In this document: positions 7,166 through 60,208 of the stretch, piece by piece
Layout: every line of letters begins with the position of its first letter
Numbering within the stretch: position 1 is the stretch's first letter
Source of the DNA: Bacteroidota bacterium
GTDB taxonomy: Bacteria; Bacteroidota; Bacteroidia; 2-12-FULL-35-15
DNA length: 64,000 nucleotides
Direction: 5' to 3'
NCBI GenBank assembly: GCA_025963715.1
Contig: JAOQAG010000026.1
Location: forward strand, 80,327-144,326
Program-made: the position numbers and the translations under genes
Notes under the pieces: model-generated
Seen by the model: only the letters and a program-made list of their open reading frames with translations
The model's database searches: none
Told to the model about the DNA's origin: nothing

Positions 7166-8125
7166 ATGAAAAAACTTTACACTTTATTAATGTTATCACT
7201 CAGCTTGCTGACATTAAAAACGGCAAAGGCGCAGGATCCGCAATTCACGCAGTTTTACGCCAATCCATTGTATTTGAATCCAGCACTTGCCGGAACAAAC
7301 ATCTGTCCGCGCATCTGCATCAATTACCGGAACCAATGGCCCGGCATTTCCGGAACATACGTTACCACCAGCGCTTCCTTCGATCGCTACATTTACCAGA
7401 TCAAAAGCGGAATTGGCGTATTGGTTACCAACGACAGGGCCGGACAAGGAACACTGAACACAACTAACATCAGCGCTATTTATTCGAAACAGATCCAGAT
7501 CAACCGCAACTTATCCATTAATGGCGGATTTAAAGCAACGTACGGGCAAAAATCCATCGACTGGAGCAAGCTTACCTTTGGTGATCAGATCAACGATCAG
7601 CGTGGATTTATTTACAATACAAATGAAACACACGGCGCTACCACCAAATCATTCGTTGATTTTTCGGCAGGATTGGTTGCCTTTACAAAACGCATGTTTA
7701 TTGGGTTTGCTGCCGATCACCTAACACAACCGGATGAAAGTTTGCTGGGCGGCGGACAAAGCAAACTGCCTGTAAAATTTACCGGCCATGCCGGAGCGAC
7801 TATTCCCATTGGCGGAAAAGAATCGGATGCAACCATTTCACCAAATGTTTTGTATCAGAAACAACAGGATTTTCAACAGCTGAATTTAGGTGTATACTTT
7901 ACAAAAGGTGCCATTGTAGGCGGATTGTGGTATCGCAACAGCGATGCATTTATTGTATTGATCGGCGTGCAGCACGGTATGTTTAAAGTAGGATACAGTT
8001 ACGATGTTACCGTTTCCAAATTAACAAACGCAACTGCAGGCTCACACGAATTATCAGTAGGATTACAATTTACCTGTAAAAAACCAAGACCAAAATATCG
8101 CCCGAGCACCTGCCCGAGCTTTTAA
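7166..8125 (+). CDS. Type IX secretion system membrane protein, PorP/SprF family
   Basis: 319 aa. Signal peptide then the hallmark QDPQFTQFYANPLYLNPALAG N-terminus of PorP/SprF. Predicted outer-membrane beta-barrel. Confidence 0.85.
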   Translation: MKKLYTLLMLSLSLLTLKTAKAQDPQFTQFYANPLYLNPALAGTNICPRICINYRNQWPGISGTYVTTSASFDRYIYQIKSGIGVLVTNDRAGQGTLNTTNISAIYSKQIQINRNLSINGGFKATYGQKSIDWSKLTFGDQINDQRGFIYNTNETHGATTKSFVDFSAGLVAFTKRMFIGFAADHLTQPDESLLGGGQSKLPVKFTGHAGATIPIGGKESDATISPNVLYQKQQDFQQLNLGVYFTKGAIVGGLWYRNSDAFIVLIGVQHGMFKVGYSYDVTVSKLTNATAGSHELSVGLQFTCKKPRPKYRPSTCPSF

Positions 8126-10163: not shown

Positions 10164-10192
10164 TTGAGGATCGCCTAATTGTTATATATTTG
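10164..10192 (+). promoter_or_regulatory. Bacteroidetes sigma-A type promoter for the collagen-like operon
   Basis: -33 TTG (10164-10166), an 18-nt spacer, then -7 TATATTTG (10185-10192), matching TTG/TAnnTTTG. It lies inside the listed ORF start at 10179, which argues for the ATG at 10215. Confidence 0.45.
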
Positions 10193-10214
10193 GTACAGGA
10201 TCAAACTCATAAAA

Positions 10215-10700
10215 ATGAAACATTATTTCGTACTTTCTATTACCTGCTGCTTGATAGTACTAAGCGCAAAATCGCAGAGTGTTGCACCACAGGTGATTTC
10301 TACTTCGGGCACCAGCTTCAGCAATGCTTCCGGCCAGCTCGACTGGACCATCGGAGAACCCGTAACTTCCGCTTTGAGCGCTTCCGGCAACCAGCTGACC
10401 CAGGGCTTTCATCAGCCCAACCTGGTAATAACCGCGGTGAACGACCTTGCCGCTGATTACTCGGTAAACGTATACCCAAACCCAACCGTTGATTACGTTA
10501 CACTTCACTTCAACAATTTAAAAGAAACGCTTACGATCGAATTATATACAACCGATGGTAAACTATTGGAATCAAAGCAGGTAAACACACTTACAGATCT
10601 GCAGCTGAGCATGGCCGATTATGCTGCCGGAACGTATTTGCTTGCTTTAAGGACAACTAATTCTGCCACTAAAAATTACAAAATAATTAAATCCCATTGA
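10215..10700 (+). CDS. Small secreted protein with a T9SS type-A C-terminal sorting domain (Por_Secre_tail)
   Basis: Signal peptide [22 protein letters not shown]. The C-terminal ~80 aa ([20 protein letters not shown]...[23 protein letters not shown]) fits the type-A CTD. The start was moved to 10215 because of the promoter position. Confidence 0.7.
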
Positions 10701-10719: not shown

Positions 10720-11718
10720 ATGAAAAAACTATACTTATTCCTGATATTCAATTGTTTTATAGCTGTGGTATTTGCACAGGCCCCGCAGGGTTTTAATTAC
10801 CAGGCAGTAGCGCGTGATGCTTCCGGCGTGGCTTTAATCAATCAATCCGTTGGCCTGCAAATAAGTCTGTTACAGGGCAGCGCTACAGGAACAGCCGTTT
10901 ATACCGAAACACATACTCTTACTTCCAGCAACATTGGGTTATTAAACCTGACGATTGGTAACGGAACACCGGTTACAGGCACGTTCAGCAGCATTAATTG
11001 GGCGGCAGGCCCTTATTTTGTTGAGATCAGCATGGATGTTACCGGCGGAACAAGTTATGTGCTGATGGGAACACAACAATTAATGAGCGTACCTTATGCA
11101 TTATTTGCTGCCAACAGTGCCAGCGGAGTTGCAGGAGCAACAGGTGCTACCGGAAACGATGGCGCAACCGGAGCAACAGGCCCAATGGGACCAATGGGCA
11201 TGGGGATGCCAGGCATGCCTGGTAGTAATGGAGCAACAGGAGTTACAGGTGCAACAGGAAATACAGGTACTACAGGAGTTGTAGGAACTACAGGTGTTAC
11301 AGGCGCCACAGGAACTACCGGGGCAACAGGAGTTGCAGGAGTAACCGGTGTAACGGGAACAACAGGAGCTACCGGTGCAACACCAGCTTTTGCTGTTCAG
11401 TTCAATTTAGTGGATAACGGTTCGTTTTCAGCATGGCTGATCGGAAACACTTCCGATTATGTTTCCGGATCCAACTCAAATCCTACACTTACGCTGTACC
11501 GCGGCTTTACTTATTATTTTAATGTAACGATAAGCGGGCACCCTTTCCGGATTGCTTCTACCGCCGCATTCCCGGGAACTCCTTTTAACACAGGCGTTAC
11601 CAACCAGGATGCACAAGGCAGCATACTTATTTTTAAAGTACCGATGGACGCACCTTCCACATTGTATTATCACTGTATTTTTCACAGTGGCATGACCGGC
11701 GTGATCAATATTCTATAA
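10720..11718 (+). CDS. Secreted collagen-like (Gly-X-Y repeat) protein with a C-terminal cupredoxin (amicyanin/plastocyanin-like blue-copper) domain
   Basis: Signal peptide. ~115-aa N-domain shared with the next gene. ~80 uninterrupted G-X-Y triplets ([39 protein letters not shown]...). C-terminal ~110 aa with GHPFRI and [16 protein letters not shown], i.e. His...Cys-x2-His-x2-Met, very close to amicyanin MPHNVHF...YDYHCTPHPFMRGKVVV. Confidence 0.8.
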
Positions 11719-11745: not shown

Positions 11746-13734
11746 ATGAAAAAATTACTTCTACTCCTCCTCTTAAATGGACTTATCATTAATTCATTTG
11801 CACAGGCCCCACAGGGCTTTAACTACCAGGCCGTGGCACGCGATGCTTCCGGTGTGGCGCTTACCAACCAGGCCATTGGCTTACAGATCAGCCTCCGCCA
11901 GGGAACTGCCAGCGGAACCATCGTATATACCGAAACACATGCACTTACTTCCAACAATCTTGGATTATTAAATTTAGTAGTGGGAAACGGAACTCCCGTA
12001 ACCGGCACTTTTAATAGCATCGACTGGGCTGCCGGGTCTTACTTCATTGAAATAAGCATGGATGTAACCGGCGGAACAAGTTATGTGCTGATGGGAACAC
12101 AACAATTAATGAGTGTGCCATACGCATTATATGCAGCAAATGCGGGTAGTTCTGCTGGTGCTACAGGTGCAACTGGAATTACGGGCGCAACAGGAAATAA
12201 CGGAGCAGACGGCGCAACGGGCGCTACAGGAATAGCCGGAGCTACAGGAATGAATGGAACAGATGGTGCCACAGGAAATACAGGCCTTGCCGGAACTACA
12301 GGAGCAACAGGAAACGATGGTGCAACCGGGCCAATGGGCCCAATGGGGATGGGAATGCCAGGCATGCCTGGTAGCAATGGAGCTACCGGTACAACTGGTA
12401 TAACAGGAGCTACCGGAGCAGGAGTTGCAGGAACTACAGGGGCTACAGGAACAACAGGAGCAAATGGAACCACTGGTGCAACAGGTATTACCGGAGCGAC
12501 AGGCGCTGGAGTTGCTGGAACAACCGGTGTAACAGGTACAACAGGTGTGAGTGGAACCACTGGCGCAACAGGTATTACCGGGGCGACAGGTGCAGGTGTA
12601 GCCGGAACAACCGGTGTAACAGGTACAACAGGTGTGAGTGGAACCACTGGGGCTACAGGTATAACAGGAGCTACCGGGGCAGGAGTTGCAGGGGCTGCCG
12701 GAGTAACAGGAACTACAGGAGCAAATGGAACCACTGGGGCTACAGGTATAACAGGAGCAACAGGAACGGGAATTACTGGAGCAACAGGAACTACAGGTAC
12801 GAATGGGAATACTGGTGCAATTGGTATCACAGGAGCTACGGGTGTAGGAATTGCCGGAACTACAGGAGTAACCGGCGCTACAGGTGCGAATGGAACTACC
12901 GGTACTACAGGAGTTTCCGGAACAACGGGTGCAACAGGTATCGGTTACGGCGGCACTTCCAATTCACCAAAAACGCTGGGCACAGGCCCAGGAAAAACAT
13001 ATAGTACACAAGCCGGCCTTGCTTATATCGCAGGAGAGCGCATCAGGTTTGTTGACCAGACAACTTCAACTAACTTTATGGAAGGAACCATTGTTTCTTA
13101 CATTGGCACTACTATAGTCGCTAACATCGATAATGCGGGGGGAGCATTAGGAACAATAGTAAATAACTGGAACCTTAGTGTGGGAGGAAATTTAGGGACT
13201 ACGGGTGTAACGGGTTCAACCGGAGTTGTGGGAAGTGCAGGCGCCACAGGGATTACCGGAGCAACCGGAACCGGAGTTGCCGGAGCGACAGGCTCAACAG
13301 GCGCTACAGGCCCTGCCGGAAGTGCATCCTCCGAATATGCTTACATCTATAATACATCCGCACAATTTGTAACTTTAGGCCAAGCCGTTACATTTGATAC
13401 CAACGGGCCTCTTTCAGCTAACATTACACATAACCCCGGAGTTTCCTATATTTTTATAAATGTATCGGGAGTTTATAAAATTGAATTCTCAGTTTCCGGT
13501 GTTCAAACCAATCAATTCTCCATTTATCAGAATGGCGCATCTGTTGCTGGTGCCAGGTACGGTGCTGCTACCGGGACTACGCAAACTACCGGATTCGTGA
13601 TCATTAATGTTGTTGCAGGTGATGTGATCCAGTTAAACAATACCGGCTCGCCCGGCAGTACAAACCTGTCGGCAAACACAGGCGGGTCACTGGCTGCTGT
13701 AAATGCTTCTATCCTGATCACAAAATTAAATTAA
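11746..13734 (+). CDS. Secreted collagen-like (Gly-X-Y repeat) protein with a C-terminal BclA/C1q-like jelly-roll domain
   Basis: The N-domain is ~85% identical to the previous gene. Long G-X-Y tracts with 27-aa perfect repeats. The C-terminus (…[18 protein letters not shown]...[47 protein letters not shown]) resembles the BclA C-terminal / C1q-TNF fold. Confidence 0.75.
12480..12730. repeat. Near-perfect 81-bp tandem repeats within the collagen-like gene (27-aa [29 protein letters not shown] units)
   Basis: ggaacaaccggtgtaacaggtacaacaggtgtgagtggaaccactgg occurs at 12517-12563 and again exactly 81 bp later at 12598-12644, with further degenerate copies on both sides. Confidence 0.8.
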
Positions 13735-13756: not shown

Positions 13757-13793
13757 ACAGGCGCGGGTATACTATCCGCGCCTGTTTTTATTT
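13757..13793 (+). terminator. Rho-independent terminator at the end of the collagen-like operon
   Basis: ACAGGCGCGG-gtatactat-CCGCGCCTGT followed by TTTTTATTT. Confidence 0.75.
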
Positions 13794-56641: not shown

Positions 56642-59600
56642 TTATTGTTGCGCTAACAGGGTAACGTGTCCCGTGTAATCGTGCAATCGCTGTTCGAAAT
56701 CACGCACGGTTATTTTGTAAACATAAACGCCATTTTCGGAGATCTTGCTGCCGTTCTTTACAGTTCCGTTCCAACCGTTCTTTATATCGTTGGTTTGGAA
56801 GATCAATTCGCCCCAGCGATCAAAGATCATCATTTTAAATTCGGAGATCTGGTCGCCTTTGGCTGTAAAATAATCGTTGGTACCGTTTTCATCCGGCGTA
56901 AACGCGTTTGGAATGTACAGTGTAAACAATGGTTTTATTTGTACGACCTCCGAAACCGAATCGAGGCAACCGGCGCTGCTGGCGGTAAAAAGTTTTACTT
57001 TGTAATCACCTTGCTGCGCATACGTATGCTCCGGATCATTATCGGTGGATGTGGCACCATCGCCAAAATCCCATTGATACGTAGCTGCATTCACCGAGAT
57101 ATTATTGAATTTATACACAGGGCTGATAGTTGTTCCATCCATTGCTTCCGATGTAAATTGTGCCAGGGAACCGGCATTAACAGTTACATTGTTTGCCACG
57201 CTTGCCGTATTCACACATCCGAAAAGCGACGTAACAATTACTGTAACATTATACACGCCGGTGGTGGTGTAGCCATGAACGGGGCTTGCAATACTGGCTG
57301 TGGCGCCATCGCCAAAATCCCAATTGTAAGCAGCACCTGTGTTGGTGGGAGAATGATCTGTAAAATTCAATTGCACTTCTTTACAACCAACTGCAGCCTG
57401 GGGCACTATATCGATCACCGGCAAAGGGTTTACTGTGACCGGAACAGATCCGGTCACTGCATTTCCACATGCATCGGTAACGGTAACAATATAGTTGGTT
57501 GAATTGGCCGGAGAAACTGTGAACGGCCCGTTTCCGCCGCCAAGACTATTGCTCCAGCTGACGGTAACCGGGCCGGTTTGCCCGGCTACGGCCGAACCAA
57601 TAACTGCAGCATTTCCATAACAGATGGCTGTAGCACCTGTAACGGTAAGGTTTGCAGCAGTTAAAGAAGTAACTGTAATGGCAAGTGTTGCTGTGTTGCT
57701 GGTGCAGCCGTTTGCATCGGTTGCTGTAACATTGTACACGGAAGAGCTAACCGGGCTAACGGTTTGCGTTGCGCCCGCTCCTACTCCGGTCCAGTTGTAG
57801 GAATATCCGGGATTACCGCCGGAAGCTGCCGCTGCGATGGTTGTGTTTTGTCCGAGGCAAATGGTGGTGCCGCCTGTTGCAGTAACCACAACCGGTGCAG
57901 GTTGTGTAACTGCCAGTGTTGAGCTGGCGCTGCAACCATTTGCATCGGTTACATTGATGGTGTATGTACCCGGGCACAAGCCGTTTGCAGCCGGGCTGGT
58001 ACCGCCATCGGGCAACCATTGATAGGAGTAAGAGGGTGAACCACCTGCGGGAATAACAACGGTTTGTCCGTTACAGGCACCGTTACAGGTGACAGGAAAT
58101 GCCGCTGTTGAGAGTGTTAAAGCAGGTGGTTCTGTGATGGTCACAAACGATGTGGCGATACAACTATTCGCATCTGTGACGGTTACAAAATAATTTCCGG
58201 GAGCCAATGCGTTTACAGATTGTGTACTTGTGGCCGGGCTGGTGGTCCAGTTATAACTGTATGCTCCGGTTCCGCCGGATGCACCCACGGTTGCAAATCC
58301 ATCGGCGAGGCCGTTACAAGTTACATTGTGAACGATCATGGCATTGGCATTTAATGCGGCAGGCTGTGTGATTGTAATGCCTGTTACGGCAGCATTACAG
58401 CCGTTTGCATCGGTAATTGTTGCCGTATAATTTGCTGCATTTAAATTGGTTGCCGTAGGCGTGATTTGCACCGGCGTTGTATTCCACGCGTACGTGTATG
58501 GAGCTGTACCACCTGTAGTGGCAATGCTTGCAGAACCATTGGCTGATCCATTGCAGGAAACATTTACCTGCGAAGTGGAATAAGTTATTGGCGCAAGCGG
58601 TTGTGTAATGCTTACTGAACTGTTGGTAACGCAGCCATTGCCGGTAGTTACAGAAAAGTTGTATGTGCCGGGAGTCAGGCTGGTAATGGATGATGTGGTA
58701 GCACCGTTTGACCAGTGATAAATATACGGTGCTAATCCACCTGTAACGTTTGCAGTAGCAACACCTGTTCCTGCTCCAAAACAGCTTACGTTGGTAGAAT
58801 TGATGACAACATTTGCAGGCGCTGCACCGCTTGCTACTAGTATACTTGCAGAGCCTGTGCAGCCACCGGAACCTGTTACGTTAATGGTATAAATACCTGC
58901 GGCAAGCGTTCCCGCCGTGATGCCGGTTCCGCCGGAAGGCAGCCATTGGTAGGTATAAGGGCCACTTCCTGAAAGAATTTGAACAGTGGCTGTACCATTG
59001 GATGCGTTGCAATTATCGGGGGTTGAAACGGTATTTAAGATGACGCCTGTGACGCTGATGCAAAATGAAAATGTTTGACTTCCGTTAAAAGGACAATTAT
59101 CATCGCGGACGGTAACGGTAAAACAATTGGATGCGTTACCGATATCGGTGATGGATGGTGTCCAGCTGAAAGTACCGGTTGGACGGGCGCCACCGCTGGA
59201 AGTAAATGTTCCGGCTGCGATACCGCTGTTCCAGGTAATGGTTACATTTTGAGTAGAATCAAGATCATAGGTTGGTATATTAAAATTGATAGGTACGCCT
59301 GCGCAGGCGGTTAATGAATATTGACCGGAGTTGTTAATGCCGTTCACATACGGATTATTGTTGGTGCAGGTCATGGTTCGCAATTGAATATCGCGCATGA
59401 CGCTGCCGACAAGAACTTCCTGGCGCCATTCTTTTACGAGAACTGTAAATACGGTTACTTCTAATTGTGTTGGTGTCATGCACATATCACCGGTTAAGGG
59501 ATTGAATGCAACTGCGGGCGAAGAGAGTAATGGTTGTGTTGCAGAATAGGGTGCAATGTAAGAAACGGTTGAAGTAGCACTGGTTTCGGGCGTAATGAGT

Positions 59601-60208
59601 GTATAGGATAATGAGTCGCCATCAATATCGGATGAACCGTTGTTAAAACAATACGGCTGGCCGATACAGACAAAGGGGATTGGCGGATTAGAAAATGTGG
59701 GAGAGCTGTTGCAGGGGAAATCCAGGTTATTTAAGAATGCTTCGATGTACATGTTTTCGGACGATGGGTTGAGGATGGTTCCGATGGATGTATTACGGCA
59801 GCAGATGCTGAAACTAAAATGCCAGTCGCTGCAGGCCATGGGTAACGTAGTAACTCCTGTGTATTTATATTCCTGTACGCCGGGATAAACACCTCCGGCA
59901 CAAACTGAGGTTAGTGATGAACAGATGGGGGATACATCCGTTCCGGTTCCGGGAATTTGATTGAGCGTAAGGTCGAAGTTTGGTCCGCAGGAAGCAGACG
60001 AAATATTTATGGTAACAGTATTGGGAGCGGCAACTCCCGCACAGTCGCGGTAGAAGGAGAGATTGATGCGGTATTGATTTCCGCCGAGGCATTGGTAAGT
60101 GATATCTGCGCTTTGAGCATGTGATGCAAAGGCCTCATTTTGTGATTGGATAAACATTAAAATGAAACTGATCCAAAAGAAAACTTTGTGTTTTAAATGC
60201 GTATTCAT
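56642..60208 (-). CDS. Large secreted adhesin-like protein with SprB repeats and PKD domains, ending in a T9SS type-B C-terminal domain (gliding-motility-associated CTD)
   Basis: 1188 aa. Signal peptide. Cys-rich N-domain. ~8 SprB-type repeats (…PYTYQWLPSGGTG…GIYTINVTGSGGCTGSA…). Two PKD-like segments (YNWDFGDGAT…, YQWDFGDGAT…). C-terminus LYIPNAFTPDENGTNDYF…IFDRWGELIF…GVYVYKI…GHVTLLAQQ. Confidence 0.85.
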   Translation of the reverse strand: MNTHLKHKVFFWISFILMFIQSQNEAFASHAQSADITYQCLGGNQYRINLSFYRDCAGVAAPNTVTINISSASCGPNFDLTLNQIPGTGTDVSPICSSLTSVCAGGVYPGVQEYKYTGVTTLPMACSDWHFSFSICCRNTSIGTILNPSSENMYIEAFLNNLDFPCNSSPTFSNPPIPFVCIGQPYCFNNGSSDIDGDSLSYTLITPETSATSTVSYIAPYSATQPLLSSPAVAFNPLTGDMCMTPTQLEVTVFTVLVKEWRQEVLVGSVMRDIQLRTMTCTNNNPYVNGINNSGQYSLTACAGVPINFNIPTYDLDSTQNVTITWNSGIAAGTFTSSGGARPTGTFSWTPSITDIGNASNCFTVTVRDDNCPFNGSQTFSFCISVTGVILNTVSTPDNCNASNGTATVQILSGSGPYTYQWLPSGGTGITAGTLAAGIYTINVTGSGGCTGSASILVASGAAPANVVINSTNVSCFGAGTGVATANVTGGLAPYIYHWSNGATTSSITSLTPGTYNFSVTTGNGCVTNSSVSITQPLAPITYSTSQVNVSCNGSANGSASIATTGGTAPYTYAWNTTPVQITPTATNLNAANYTATITDANGCNAAVTGITITQPAALNANAMIVHNVTCNGLADGFATVGASGGTGAYSYNWTTSPATSTQSVNALAPGNYFVTVTDANSCIATSFVTITEPPALTLSTAAFPVTCNGACNGQTVVIPAGGSPSYSYQWLPDGGTSPAANGLCPGTYTINVTDANGCSASSTLAVTQPAPVVVTATGGTTICLGQNTTIAAAASGGNPGYSYNWTGVGAGATQTVSPVSSSVYNVTATDANGCTSNTATLAITVTSLTAANLTVTGATAICYGNAAVIGSAVAGQTGPVTVSWSNSLGGGNGPFTVSPANSTNYIVTVTDACGNAVTGSVPVTVNPLPVIDIVPQAAVGCKEVQLNFTDHSPTNTGAAYNWDFGDGATASIASPVHGYTTTGVYNVTVIVTSLFGCVNTASVANNVTVNAGSLAQFTSEAMDGTTISPVYKFNNISVNAATYQWDFGDGATSTDNDPEHTYAQQGDYKVKLFTASSAGCLDSVSEVVQIKPLFTLYIPNAFTPDENGTNDYFTAKGDQISEFKMMIFDRWGELIFQTNDIKNGWNGTVKNGSKISENGVYVYKITVRDFEQRLHDYTGHVTLLAQQ

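Follow-up and report, generated by a model that had tools for sequence, protein, structure and literature searches.

We analyzed a 64,000-nucleotide stretch of contig JAOQAG010000026.1 from a Bacteroidota bacterium (hereafter, "the window"), in which a complete gene on the forward strand encodes a secreted collagen-like protein with a predicted cupredoxin-fold head. The open reading frame at 10720-11718 runs from an ATG start to a TAA stop (11716-11718) and encodes 332 aa, as an earlier sequence-only reading of the same DNA had reported from the list of open reading frames and their translations. That reading had also described the protein as secreted, with a collagen-like region of ~80 G-X-Y triplets followed by a C-terminal globular domain of ~110 aa. 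The signal peptide (residues 1-19, before QAPQG) is indeed present at the start, and the C-terminal domain spans ~111 aa and bears the quoted SGHPFRI and the Cys/His/Met motif. The collagen-plus-head outline therefore stands; the triplet number does not, since we count 28 triplets and ~86 residues in all, and a further domain at residues 20-135 had been overlooked. The protein thus has four parts: a signal peptide (1-19), an N-terminal domain (20-135), a collagen-like region (136-221), and a C-terminal domain (222-332). The features of the locus, in window coordinates, are:

10720-11718, forward strand: complete gene for the 332-aa secreted collagen-like protein with cupredoxin head (open reading frame list, translation)
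10720-10776, forward strand: signal peptide, residues 1-19 (read from the sequence; presumed cleavage site)
10777-11124, forward strand: N-terminal beta-sandwich domain, residues 20-135 (116 aa), presumed base or anchor of the fibre
11125-11382, forward strand: collagen-like stalk, residues 136-221, with 28 G-X-Y triplets (9 + 19), mostly G-x-T (triplet count, PF01391)
11179-11220, forward strand: Met-rich stretch holding the sole break in triplet register (identical in the paralogue)
11383-11715, forward strand: predicted cupredoxin-fold head at the C-terminus, residues 222-332 (111 aa) (AF2, Foldseek, profile against PDB, phrog_677)
11746-13734, forward strand: adjacent paralogue of 662 aa, with the same signal peptide and N-terminal domain, a collagen stalk of greater length, a globular insert inside the protein and, in place of a cupredoxin, a C-terminal head of BclA/C1q type
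13757-13785, forward strand: strong terminator-like hairpin after the paralogue, with a 13-bp stem (8 G-C pairs) and a T-run

Across 33 homologues, positions Q1, P3 and Q9 of the mature chain do not vary, so that the mature N-terminus is an invariant Gln. Display of the protein at the cell surface is an assumption on our part, because it carries no T9SS C-terminal sorting domain, lipobox or recognised anchor. An exact-match look-up of the 332-aa protein in public assemblies returned no record, and a Pfam scan recognised only its collagen repeats (PF01391).

The N-terminal domain is modelled by AF2 as a beta-sandwich (pLDDT 90) and is well conserved; the homologue search for it gave only short fragments (at most 202 aa), and these formed the alignment for the prediction. 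It occurs in the adjacent gene at 11746-13734, with 84.5% identity, and in eight Bacteroidota genomes, always after a signal peptide and before collagen repeats. The Sec signal peptide and QAPQ mature end are found in both window proteins and in all eight of these orthologues. Fold searches with the domain returned generic Ig-like sandwiches only. We rejected assignment to the Bdellovibrio MAT family and kept it as an analogy: the NCBIfam model Bdello_MAT_N (NF053851) matches residues 10-86 (E 2e-8), but its 34 bits lie under the cutoff of 60, the match overlaps the signal peptide, and it is absent in the 84.5%-identical paralogue.

The collagen-like region that the sequence-only reading had proposed passes the Pfam family threshold (PF01391, 47.1 bits versus a cutoff of 27.2). 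Its triplets form two runs, residues 136-162 (9 triplets) and 165-221 (19 triplets), separated by the two-residue break "MP". This break lies in the Met-rich stretch, around which a 21-residue string is found in both window collagen proteins; the stretch is absent in four orthologues (L001, L002, L004, L005). Models for the Scl1, Scl2 and Lcl adhesins (NCBIfam NF038329, NF038330, NF046116) reach only 37-40 bits against cutoffs of 325-500, and what they match is the collagen repeats alone. Bacterial collagens such as BclA and Scl require a globular nucleation domain. By analogy with these, the 332-aa protein most likely forms a homotrimer with a triple-helical stalk. If the triple helix forms, its 86 residues would extend over ~24 nm at the rise of 0.28-0.29 nm per residue used for collagen in PMC12357932.

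The C-terminal 137 aa of the paralogue match PDB 9H38 (E 4.4e-20), the C-terminal domain of F-BclA, which is the trimeric C1q-like head of a Bacillus collagen-like tip protein (PMC12357932). The paralogue also matches phrog_30509, "collagen like minor tail" (E 2e-63). The tandem genes have base and stalk in common and differ in their heads, and the heads look interchangeable, because the paralogue combines the same N-terminal domain with a BclA/C1q head. There is no hairpin comparable to the one at 13757-13785 between the two collagen genes. The pair is flanked by glyS, DUF3109 and the ribonucleotide reductase subunit genes nrdB and nrdA; the locus is chromosomal, with housekeeping flanks. Orthologues of the same layout occur in five Bacteroidota genomes. 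In the related genome L001, two genes of the collagen-cupredoxin type occupy the place between glyS and DUF3109-nrdB-nrdA, and one of them has lost the first candidate His ligand alone. A second genome thus has collagen-cupredoxin genes between glyS and DUF3109, with a head just 75% identical.

The cupredoxin-fold head and its candidate copper site

The AF2 model of the head, built from an alignment of 25 homologues, has eight strands (pLDDT 88.2, pTM 0.80) and corresponds to the Greek-key beta-sandwich of 7-8 strands that defines the cupredoxin fold. A Foldseek search of the PDB with this model gives 42 matches at E <= 1e-3, and all 50 of the listed matches are cupredoxin-fold proteins, among them rusticyanin (best, 1.5e-5), AcoP, pseudoazurin (TM 0.59), plastocyanin, amicyanin, laccase, and nitrite-reductase domains. 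The sequence-only reading had named structure prediction as a way in which its proposal could fail, and what the prediction returned is a cupredoxin beta-sandwich.

Sequence comparison points the same way when a profile of the family is used. All ten matches of this profile to PDB sequences are cupredoxins, with plastocyanin best (E 0.011) and the Cys/His/Met loop aligned. The single sequence, searched against the PDB, instead gave a GH18 match at E 0.33, which we discarded as spurious. In hhalign comparisons with amicyanin and plastocyanin, the Cys, His and Met columns coincide exactly; the N-terminal His is displaced by two residues relative to amicyanin, and the alignment with plastocyanin extends over no more than 29 columns at the C-terminal end. 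The motif alignment to amicyanin claimed at the outset is thus reproduced for the C-x2-H-x2-M loop.

Existing family models do not capture the head. The Pfam model PF00127 (Copper-bind, gathering threshold 21.2 bits) has no match in the window protein at E <= 1 and matches 7 of 26 family members weakly (best E 0.0096), with the distant relative P0027 scoring 23.5 bits. No Pfam or NCBIfam model in the copies searched reaches threshold in the head, although a few of its relatives pass PF25489 or PF00127, and a profile search of PDB sequences found no solved structure within the family. The head lacks the H-C-H and H-x-H motifs of the type-2/type-3 sites of multicopper oxidases and nitrite reductases, and we therefore ruled out a multicopper-oxidase-type domain. 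His318, which precedes Cys319 (H318-C319-I320), is not conserved, being V, M, Y, I, R or N in homologues, and the domain has three His only.

The candidate ligands map to two short segments:

11539-11541, forward strand: codon CAC for His274, candidate N-terminal type-1 Cu ligand in G-H-P-F (in the loop before model strand 56-59; His in 90.5% of 189 copies)
11674-11694, forward strand: Cys319-Ile-Phe-His322-Ser-Gly-Met325, candidate C-x2-H-x2-M ligand loop (AF2 topology, hhalign, coupled conservation)

His274 lies within SGHPFRI, and Cys319, His322 and Met325 are the further candidate ligands, so that the four type-1 positions named by the sequence-only reading are all present. Cys319 is the sole Cys of the mature protein. 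In the AF2 model it ends the penultimate strand (94-99), and the loop that leads into the last strand contains His322 and Met325; the ligand set His ... Cys-xn-His-xn-Met is thus predicted to sit at the canonical topology. The loop matches amicyanin CTPHPFM residue for residue, as well as the plastocyanin loop. What follows His274 is less typical. In classical cupredoxins, an Asn or Ser after the first His ligand provides a second-sphere hydrogen bond (the residue is Ser in rusticyanin). The head has Pro in this place (G-H-P-F), invariant in the close family and present in 90% of the wider set. With Pro in this place, a hydrogen bond that blue copper sites typically have, from a backbone N-H to S(Cys), is lost.

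Loss of the ligands among homologues had been named as the other way in which the proposal could fail, and they are in fact largely kept. All four positions are invariant in 25 of 25 homologues of the head (47-70% identity). In a wider set of 189 near-complete domain copies, taken from clusters outside the profile seed, the frequencies (in domain numbering) are 90.5% for His53, 86% for Cys98, 86% for His101 and 91% for Met104. The full H/C/H/M pattern is found in 158 copies; four have H/C/H with Leu, Gln or Phe in place of Met, and 27 lack at least two ligands. As axial residues, Leu, Gln and Phe have precedents in laccases, stellacyanin and proteins like them. Cys and His101 occur together in 162 copies, are jointly missing from 26 and disagree in one (Fisher p = 4e-31, a value that overstates independence because the sequences are related); for other equally conserved columns, p ranges between 1e-4 and 1. 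Copies that retain the ligands are found in Bacteroidota, Alphaproteobacteria, Bdellovibrionales, Planctomycetota, archaea and phages.

At the level of sequence comparison, this pattern bears the mark of selection on a single functional unit, because ligand loss is nearly all-or-none and the ligands persist across bacteria, archaea and phages; it argues that the copper site is retained and functional. We consider it probable, on this evidence, that the head binds copper. The fold can apparently also serve without copper, because ~14% of domain copies have lost the ligands and kept the fold and because several structural columns (Tyr, Gly, Pro) outrank the ligands in conservation among the 189 copies.

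The head family in cells and phages

A profile search of 1.84 billion representatives recovered 7,496 clusters (at 50% identity) with E <= 1e-3, of which 3,621 reach E <= 1e-10. Collagen runs lie beside the domain in 43 of the 172 best cluster representatives from cellular and metagenomic sources. The same combination is found in 39 of the 82 viral ORFs examined, where the number of G-X-Y triplets lies between 20 and 359 and the longest protein has 3,484 aa. To judge from these sequences, collagen plus cupredoxin is a recurrent natural architecture and no one-off, because it appears in both sets. The sequence-only reading had suggested a search for other such fusions and had taken the architecture to be undescribed. 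In open-access papers, we found nothing relevant on cupredoxins or blue copper in connection with collagen-like, tail-fibre, baseplate or phage structural proteins, so the second point holds for that literature; in sequence databases, on the other hand, collagen-cupredoxin proteins are common. Source names obtained by cluster look-up for ten relatives are "collagen-like protein" and "hypothetical protein" only, while P0023, a collagen-linked family member, carries the automated annotation "plastocyanin."

The domain is also abundant in viruses. At least 560 stretches in IMG/VR match it, and one viral ORF (L051) sits amid tail-fibre and tail-fibre-assembly genes. The copper site is intact in 93 of 94 members of the viral set, a biased figure because the retrieval patterns contained Cys or GHPF. 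By tblastn, the domain is present in 348 GenBank phage records, nearly all of them Synechococcus and Prochlorococcus myoviruses. In S-RIM2, it forms the C-terminus of a gp9-like protein, encoded between gp7-like and gp8-like baseplate genes, with the ligands intact. The match of the window protein to phrog_677 ("baseplate wedge tail fiber protein connector"; E 6.6e-24) is confined to its head, which aligns to positions 250-408 of the 412 in the profile. The collagen regions, for their part, match many tail-fibre PHROGs.

The family further includes CHRD-repeat lipoproteins with a recurrent HPAHIH motif in Flavobacteriia, lipoproteins in Bdellovibrionales that consist of the domain alone (135-146 aa), proteins with two domains in the PS1 clade, and very large archaeal surface proteins. 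Fold and ligand chemistry are of the classical kind, in contrast to the architecture and to the setting in fibres and virions.

Proposed function of the fibre

The window protein can be compared with four kinds of known systems. Amicyanin, plastocyanin, pseudoazurin, rusticyanin and AcoP have the same ligand order as the head, His and then Cys-x2-His-x2-Met, and amicyanin has exactly its loop length. However, these single-domain blue copper proteins are free soluble carriers, whereas the head forms the C-terminal tip of a collagen stalk with a second domain at the far end, has an invariant Pro (G-H-P-F) where the classical proteins have Asn, and has no partner redox enzyme in its gene neighborhood. 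Sequence similarity between them is marginal (PDB E 0.011, under the PF00127 threshold).

In overall plan, the protein resembles the BclA and F-BclA fibres, in which a part for attachment at the N-terminus is likewise followed by a collagen stalk rich in G-x-T and a globular head at the C-terminus; the window paralogue itself carries this head. By analogy, a BclA-like role in surface contact or aggregation is to be expected for the window fibre (PMC12357932). The two differ in that the BclA head is a C1q/TNF jelly roll and the window head a predicted cupredoxin; in that BclA belongs to a Firmicute spore and the window protein to a Gram-negative Bacteroidota bacterium; and in that BclA begins with an exosporium leader peptide, in place of which the window protein has a 116-aa beta-sandwich after its Sec signal.

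The gp9-like protein of T4-like cyanophages (such as S-RIM2 YP_007675551, phrog_677) shares the head: its C-terminal ~110 residues belong to the same family and have the four ligands, GGHPFRIQS...YYQCTLHAQMQG. Identity between the head query and S-RIM2 R1_1999 is 53.5% over residues 29-112, and it reaches 54.7% in the best S-RIM2 records. The S-RIM2-type protein contains T4_gp9_10_N (PF07880, E 1.3e-10) and has neither collagen nor a signal peptide, whereas the window protein has no phage context and no T4_gp9_10_N domain (PF07880 gave no match in the Pfam scan). Finally, the MAT fibres of Bdellovibrio combine an invariant N-terminal domain, a trimeric stalk and variable C-terminal tips encoded by paralogous genes (PMC10769870). 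The concept of a constant N-terminal domain with swappable heads from paralogous genes is that of the window pair, but the MAT paper mentions collagen 0 times and reports no cupredoxin or copper tip, unlike the collagen stalk and cupredoxin head described here.

The reading that we favor, with about even confidence, is the following: a Sec-exported fibre with a contact-making cupredoxin head, in which the copper site is retained in a non-respiratory capacity. The Bacteroidota protein would be exported by Sec and would most likely assemble as a homotrimer, with the conserved N-terminal beta-sandwich as its base and the 28 G-X-Y triplets as a triple-helical stalk of ~24 nm. Each chain would end in a cupredoxin head that may hold one copper ion in a type-1-like site formed by His274, Cys319, His322 and Met325. 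This head, a module that is widespread in phage tail fibres and also occurs in the cyanophage gp9-like baseplate protein, would be one of several interchangeable fibre-head modules and would form the distal end of the fibre for contact or recognition. The copper site would be a retained functional feature, for fold stabilisation or for redox or copper sensing, and would play no part in respiratory electron transfer. By analogy with the BclA-type and MAT fibres, the simplest reading is a fibre of three chains with an exchangeable head at its far end, although the window protein qualifies as a member of neither family. We favor the fibre-head role because the gene has no links to respiratory or copper genes, the stalk is no electron conduit, the module occurs on virions, and the sister protein has an adhesion-type head. 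A more specific version, in which a type-1 copper centre, kept all the way from Bacteroidota surface fibres to the tail fibres of phages and the baseplate of cyanophages, serves as a sensor or trigger in fibre heads, so that redox state or copper occupancy gates adhesion, conformation or the start of infection, is improbable in our view.

The sequence-only reading had suggested, as one possibility, an extracellular "antenna" for electron transfer or copper handling. Under this reading, three blue-copper centres held out by the stalk would move electrons between the envelope of the cell and donors or acceptors outside it, or would act as oxidants of Cu(I) or Fe(II). The intact type-1 ligand set with its short amicyanin-type loop would suit this role, as would the resemblance of the stand-alone Bdellovibrionales lipoproteins to ordinary periplasmic cupredoxins and the presence in the family of CHRD fusions with the HPAHIH motif. 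CueO, PcoC and CusF bind Cu(I) through motifs rich in Met, and the Met-rich stretch of the stalk could be counted on the same side; yet this stretch is also present in the cupredoxin-less paralogue and absent in the four orthologues listed above. Moreover, the genes that flank 10720-11718 include none for a cytochrome, an oxidase, a multicopper oxidase or copper handling, and no redox or copper partner genes were found beside the stand-alone relatives L023 and L024. An insulating stalk of ~24 nm would offer no electron path to the cell, and the same domain is found in virion baseplate and tail-fibre proteins, for which we can name no plausible electron-transfer partner. With a BclA/C1q head on the paralogue in addition, we regard the antenna as unsupported and improbable. 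The alternative that the earlier reading had also raised, a cupredoxin fold reused for binding, fits the evidence better, although the ligand pattern argues that the site itself has been kept and is functional.

In a further rival reading, the head would be a copper-free structural domain, either a knob for trimerisation and registration or a binding domain, with the ligands as relics. The ligand-less copies that keep the fold, the conservation of structural Tyr, Gly and Pro above that of the ligands, the need of bacterial collagens for a nucleation domain and the invariant His-Pro in place of the classical His-Asn are all consistent with it. A relic, however, would be expected to decay site by site, whereas 188 of the 189 copies either have both Cys and the loop His or lack both. 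In addition, the site is intact in 86% of copies, with bacteria, archaea and phages all represented; where the other three ligands remain, the axial residue has changed only to Leu, Gln or Phe, which real type-1 sites tolerate; and there is hardly another explanation for an invariant Cys that stands alone and unpaired in a secreted domain. We judge a copper-free head unlikely. Far less probable still is that both collagen genes are phage tail-fibre genes, left by a prophage or serving as a tailocin fibre. The matches of the heads to phrog_677 and phrog_30509, the tail-fibre PHROGs matched by the collagen regions and the great abundance of the domain in viral contigs would agree with such an origin. 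But both proteins and the eight orthologues have the Sec signal peptide and QAPQ mature end, and phage tail fibres, to our knowledge, have no signal peptides. No phage structural, integrase or lysis gene was seen within 10 kb, and we reject a prophage origin on the signal peptides, the housekeeping flanks and the conserved synteny of the glyS-DUF3109 slot.

Cupredoxins are textbook soluble electron carriers or domains of catalytic enzymes. Here one caps a collagen stalk, and its copper site appears to be intact. The significance rests less on the single gene than on the family it exposes, with its thousands of clusters and its members in phage fibres and the baseplate of cultured marine cyanophages. 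The annotation of viromes would also be concerned: "plastocyanin" calls such as that of P0023 could be misread as auxiliary metabolic genes, when the domains in question belong to structural proteins. Even if the head does not bind copper, the family shows with rare clarity how a fold known from electron transfer has been taken over for use in fibres. If copper is bound, a redox-active metal centre would be present on virions and on the surface fibres of bacteria; and if the sensor or trigger reading were true, this would be a role for a cupredoxin metalloprotein outside electron-transport chains and a previously unrecognised virion cofactor.

The adjacent paralogue and a shared methionine-rich segment

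The gene next to that of the collagen-cupredoxin protein encodes a paralogue with the same N-domain, and the two proteins have one stretch of stalk in common:

11746-13734, + strand: BclA-like collagen protein, 662 aa, paralogue of the window protein
11179-11220 and 12328-12372: Met-rich collagen segment, identical in both paralogues, which continues as SNGATG

The C-terminal 137 aa of the paralogue resemble the C1q-like head of F-BclA (PDB 9H38, E 4.4e-20) and also match the phage protein family phrog_30509 (E 2e-63); the stalk of this protein is broken by a non-collagen insert of ~80 residues (roughly residues 401-480). The Met-rich segment has 5 Met in 15 residues, contains the sole register break, and was not found in the orthologues at L001, L002, L004 and L005. 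It could have originated by gene conversion, or could be a flexible kink or a Cu(I)-binding Met motif.

Secretion and the neighboring genes

The gene at 10179-10700 (+), 20 bp upstream of the window protein gene on the same strand, encodes a small secreted protein (~160-173 aa) that bears a C-terminal sorting domain of the T9SS type (PF18962, E 6e-11); at the syntenic locus of the related genome L001, this slot instead holds a second collagen-cupredoxin gene. Elsewhere in the window are genes for a 1,188-aa protein that combines SprB repeats and PKD with a T9SS signal of the CHU_C type (56642-60208, -) and for a PorP/SprF protein (7166-8125, +); together they show that the genome has a type IX secretion and gliding apparatus.

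Phage relatives

In T4-like cyanophages, the cupredoxin domain forms the C-terminal end of a gp9-like connector and carries all four ligands, an occurrence of which we found no mention in the literature searched; phage records with the domain number 348 in all. The example from S-RIM2 is:

L131 5023-6255 (NC_020859.1 74302-75534): gp9-like baseplate wedge tail-fibre connector

At another locus, a viral collagen-cupredoxin ORF of 1,134 aa is directly preceded by a gene for a 2OG-Fe(II) oxygenase (L065 3077-5089, +; phrog_61, E 2e-98), an enzyme that could hydroxylate prolyl or lysyl residues of collagen.

Variants and architectures in the cupredoxin family

Some members of the cupredoxin family (P0026, P0027, P0033) pass or approach Pfam PF25489, whose name, “At5g54830-like domain”, comes from a plant protein, and these matches suggest that PF25489 is a relative of the family. 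Two members from Bacteroidota are:

L001 3254-3862, + strand: 202-aa collagen-repeat protein with a signal peptide and a cupredoxin head
L024 4449-5249: CHRD-cupredoxin lipoprotein, Polaribacter irgensii

The former is a natural three-ligand variant, in which Phe replaces the first His ligand (VAGFPFRIQ) and C-x2-H-x2-M is retained. In some Bacteroidota proteins (L007 79-1911; L008-L010), the cupredoxin domain is internal, with collagen runs on either side. The C-terminal sequence of L007 79-1911 resembles a T9SS sorting domain; such an end would give these relatives a defined export route, which the window protein lacks. In Flavobacteriia (L016, L017, L019, L024), lipoproteins carry 1-4 CHRD domains followed by a cupredoxin domain, and each CHRD domain contains an HPAHIH motif. 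The combination of CHRD and cupredoxin may be a metal-related pairing.
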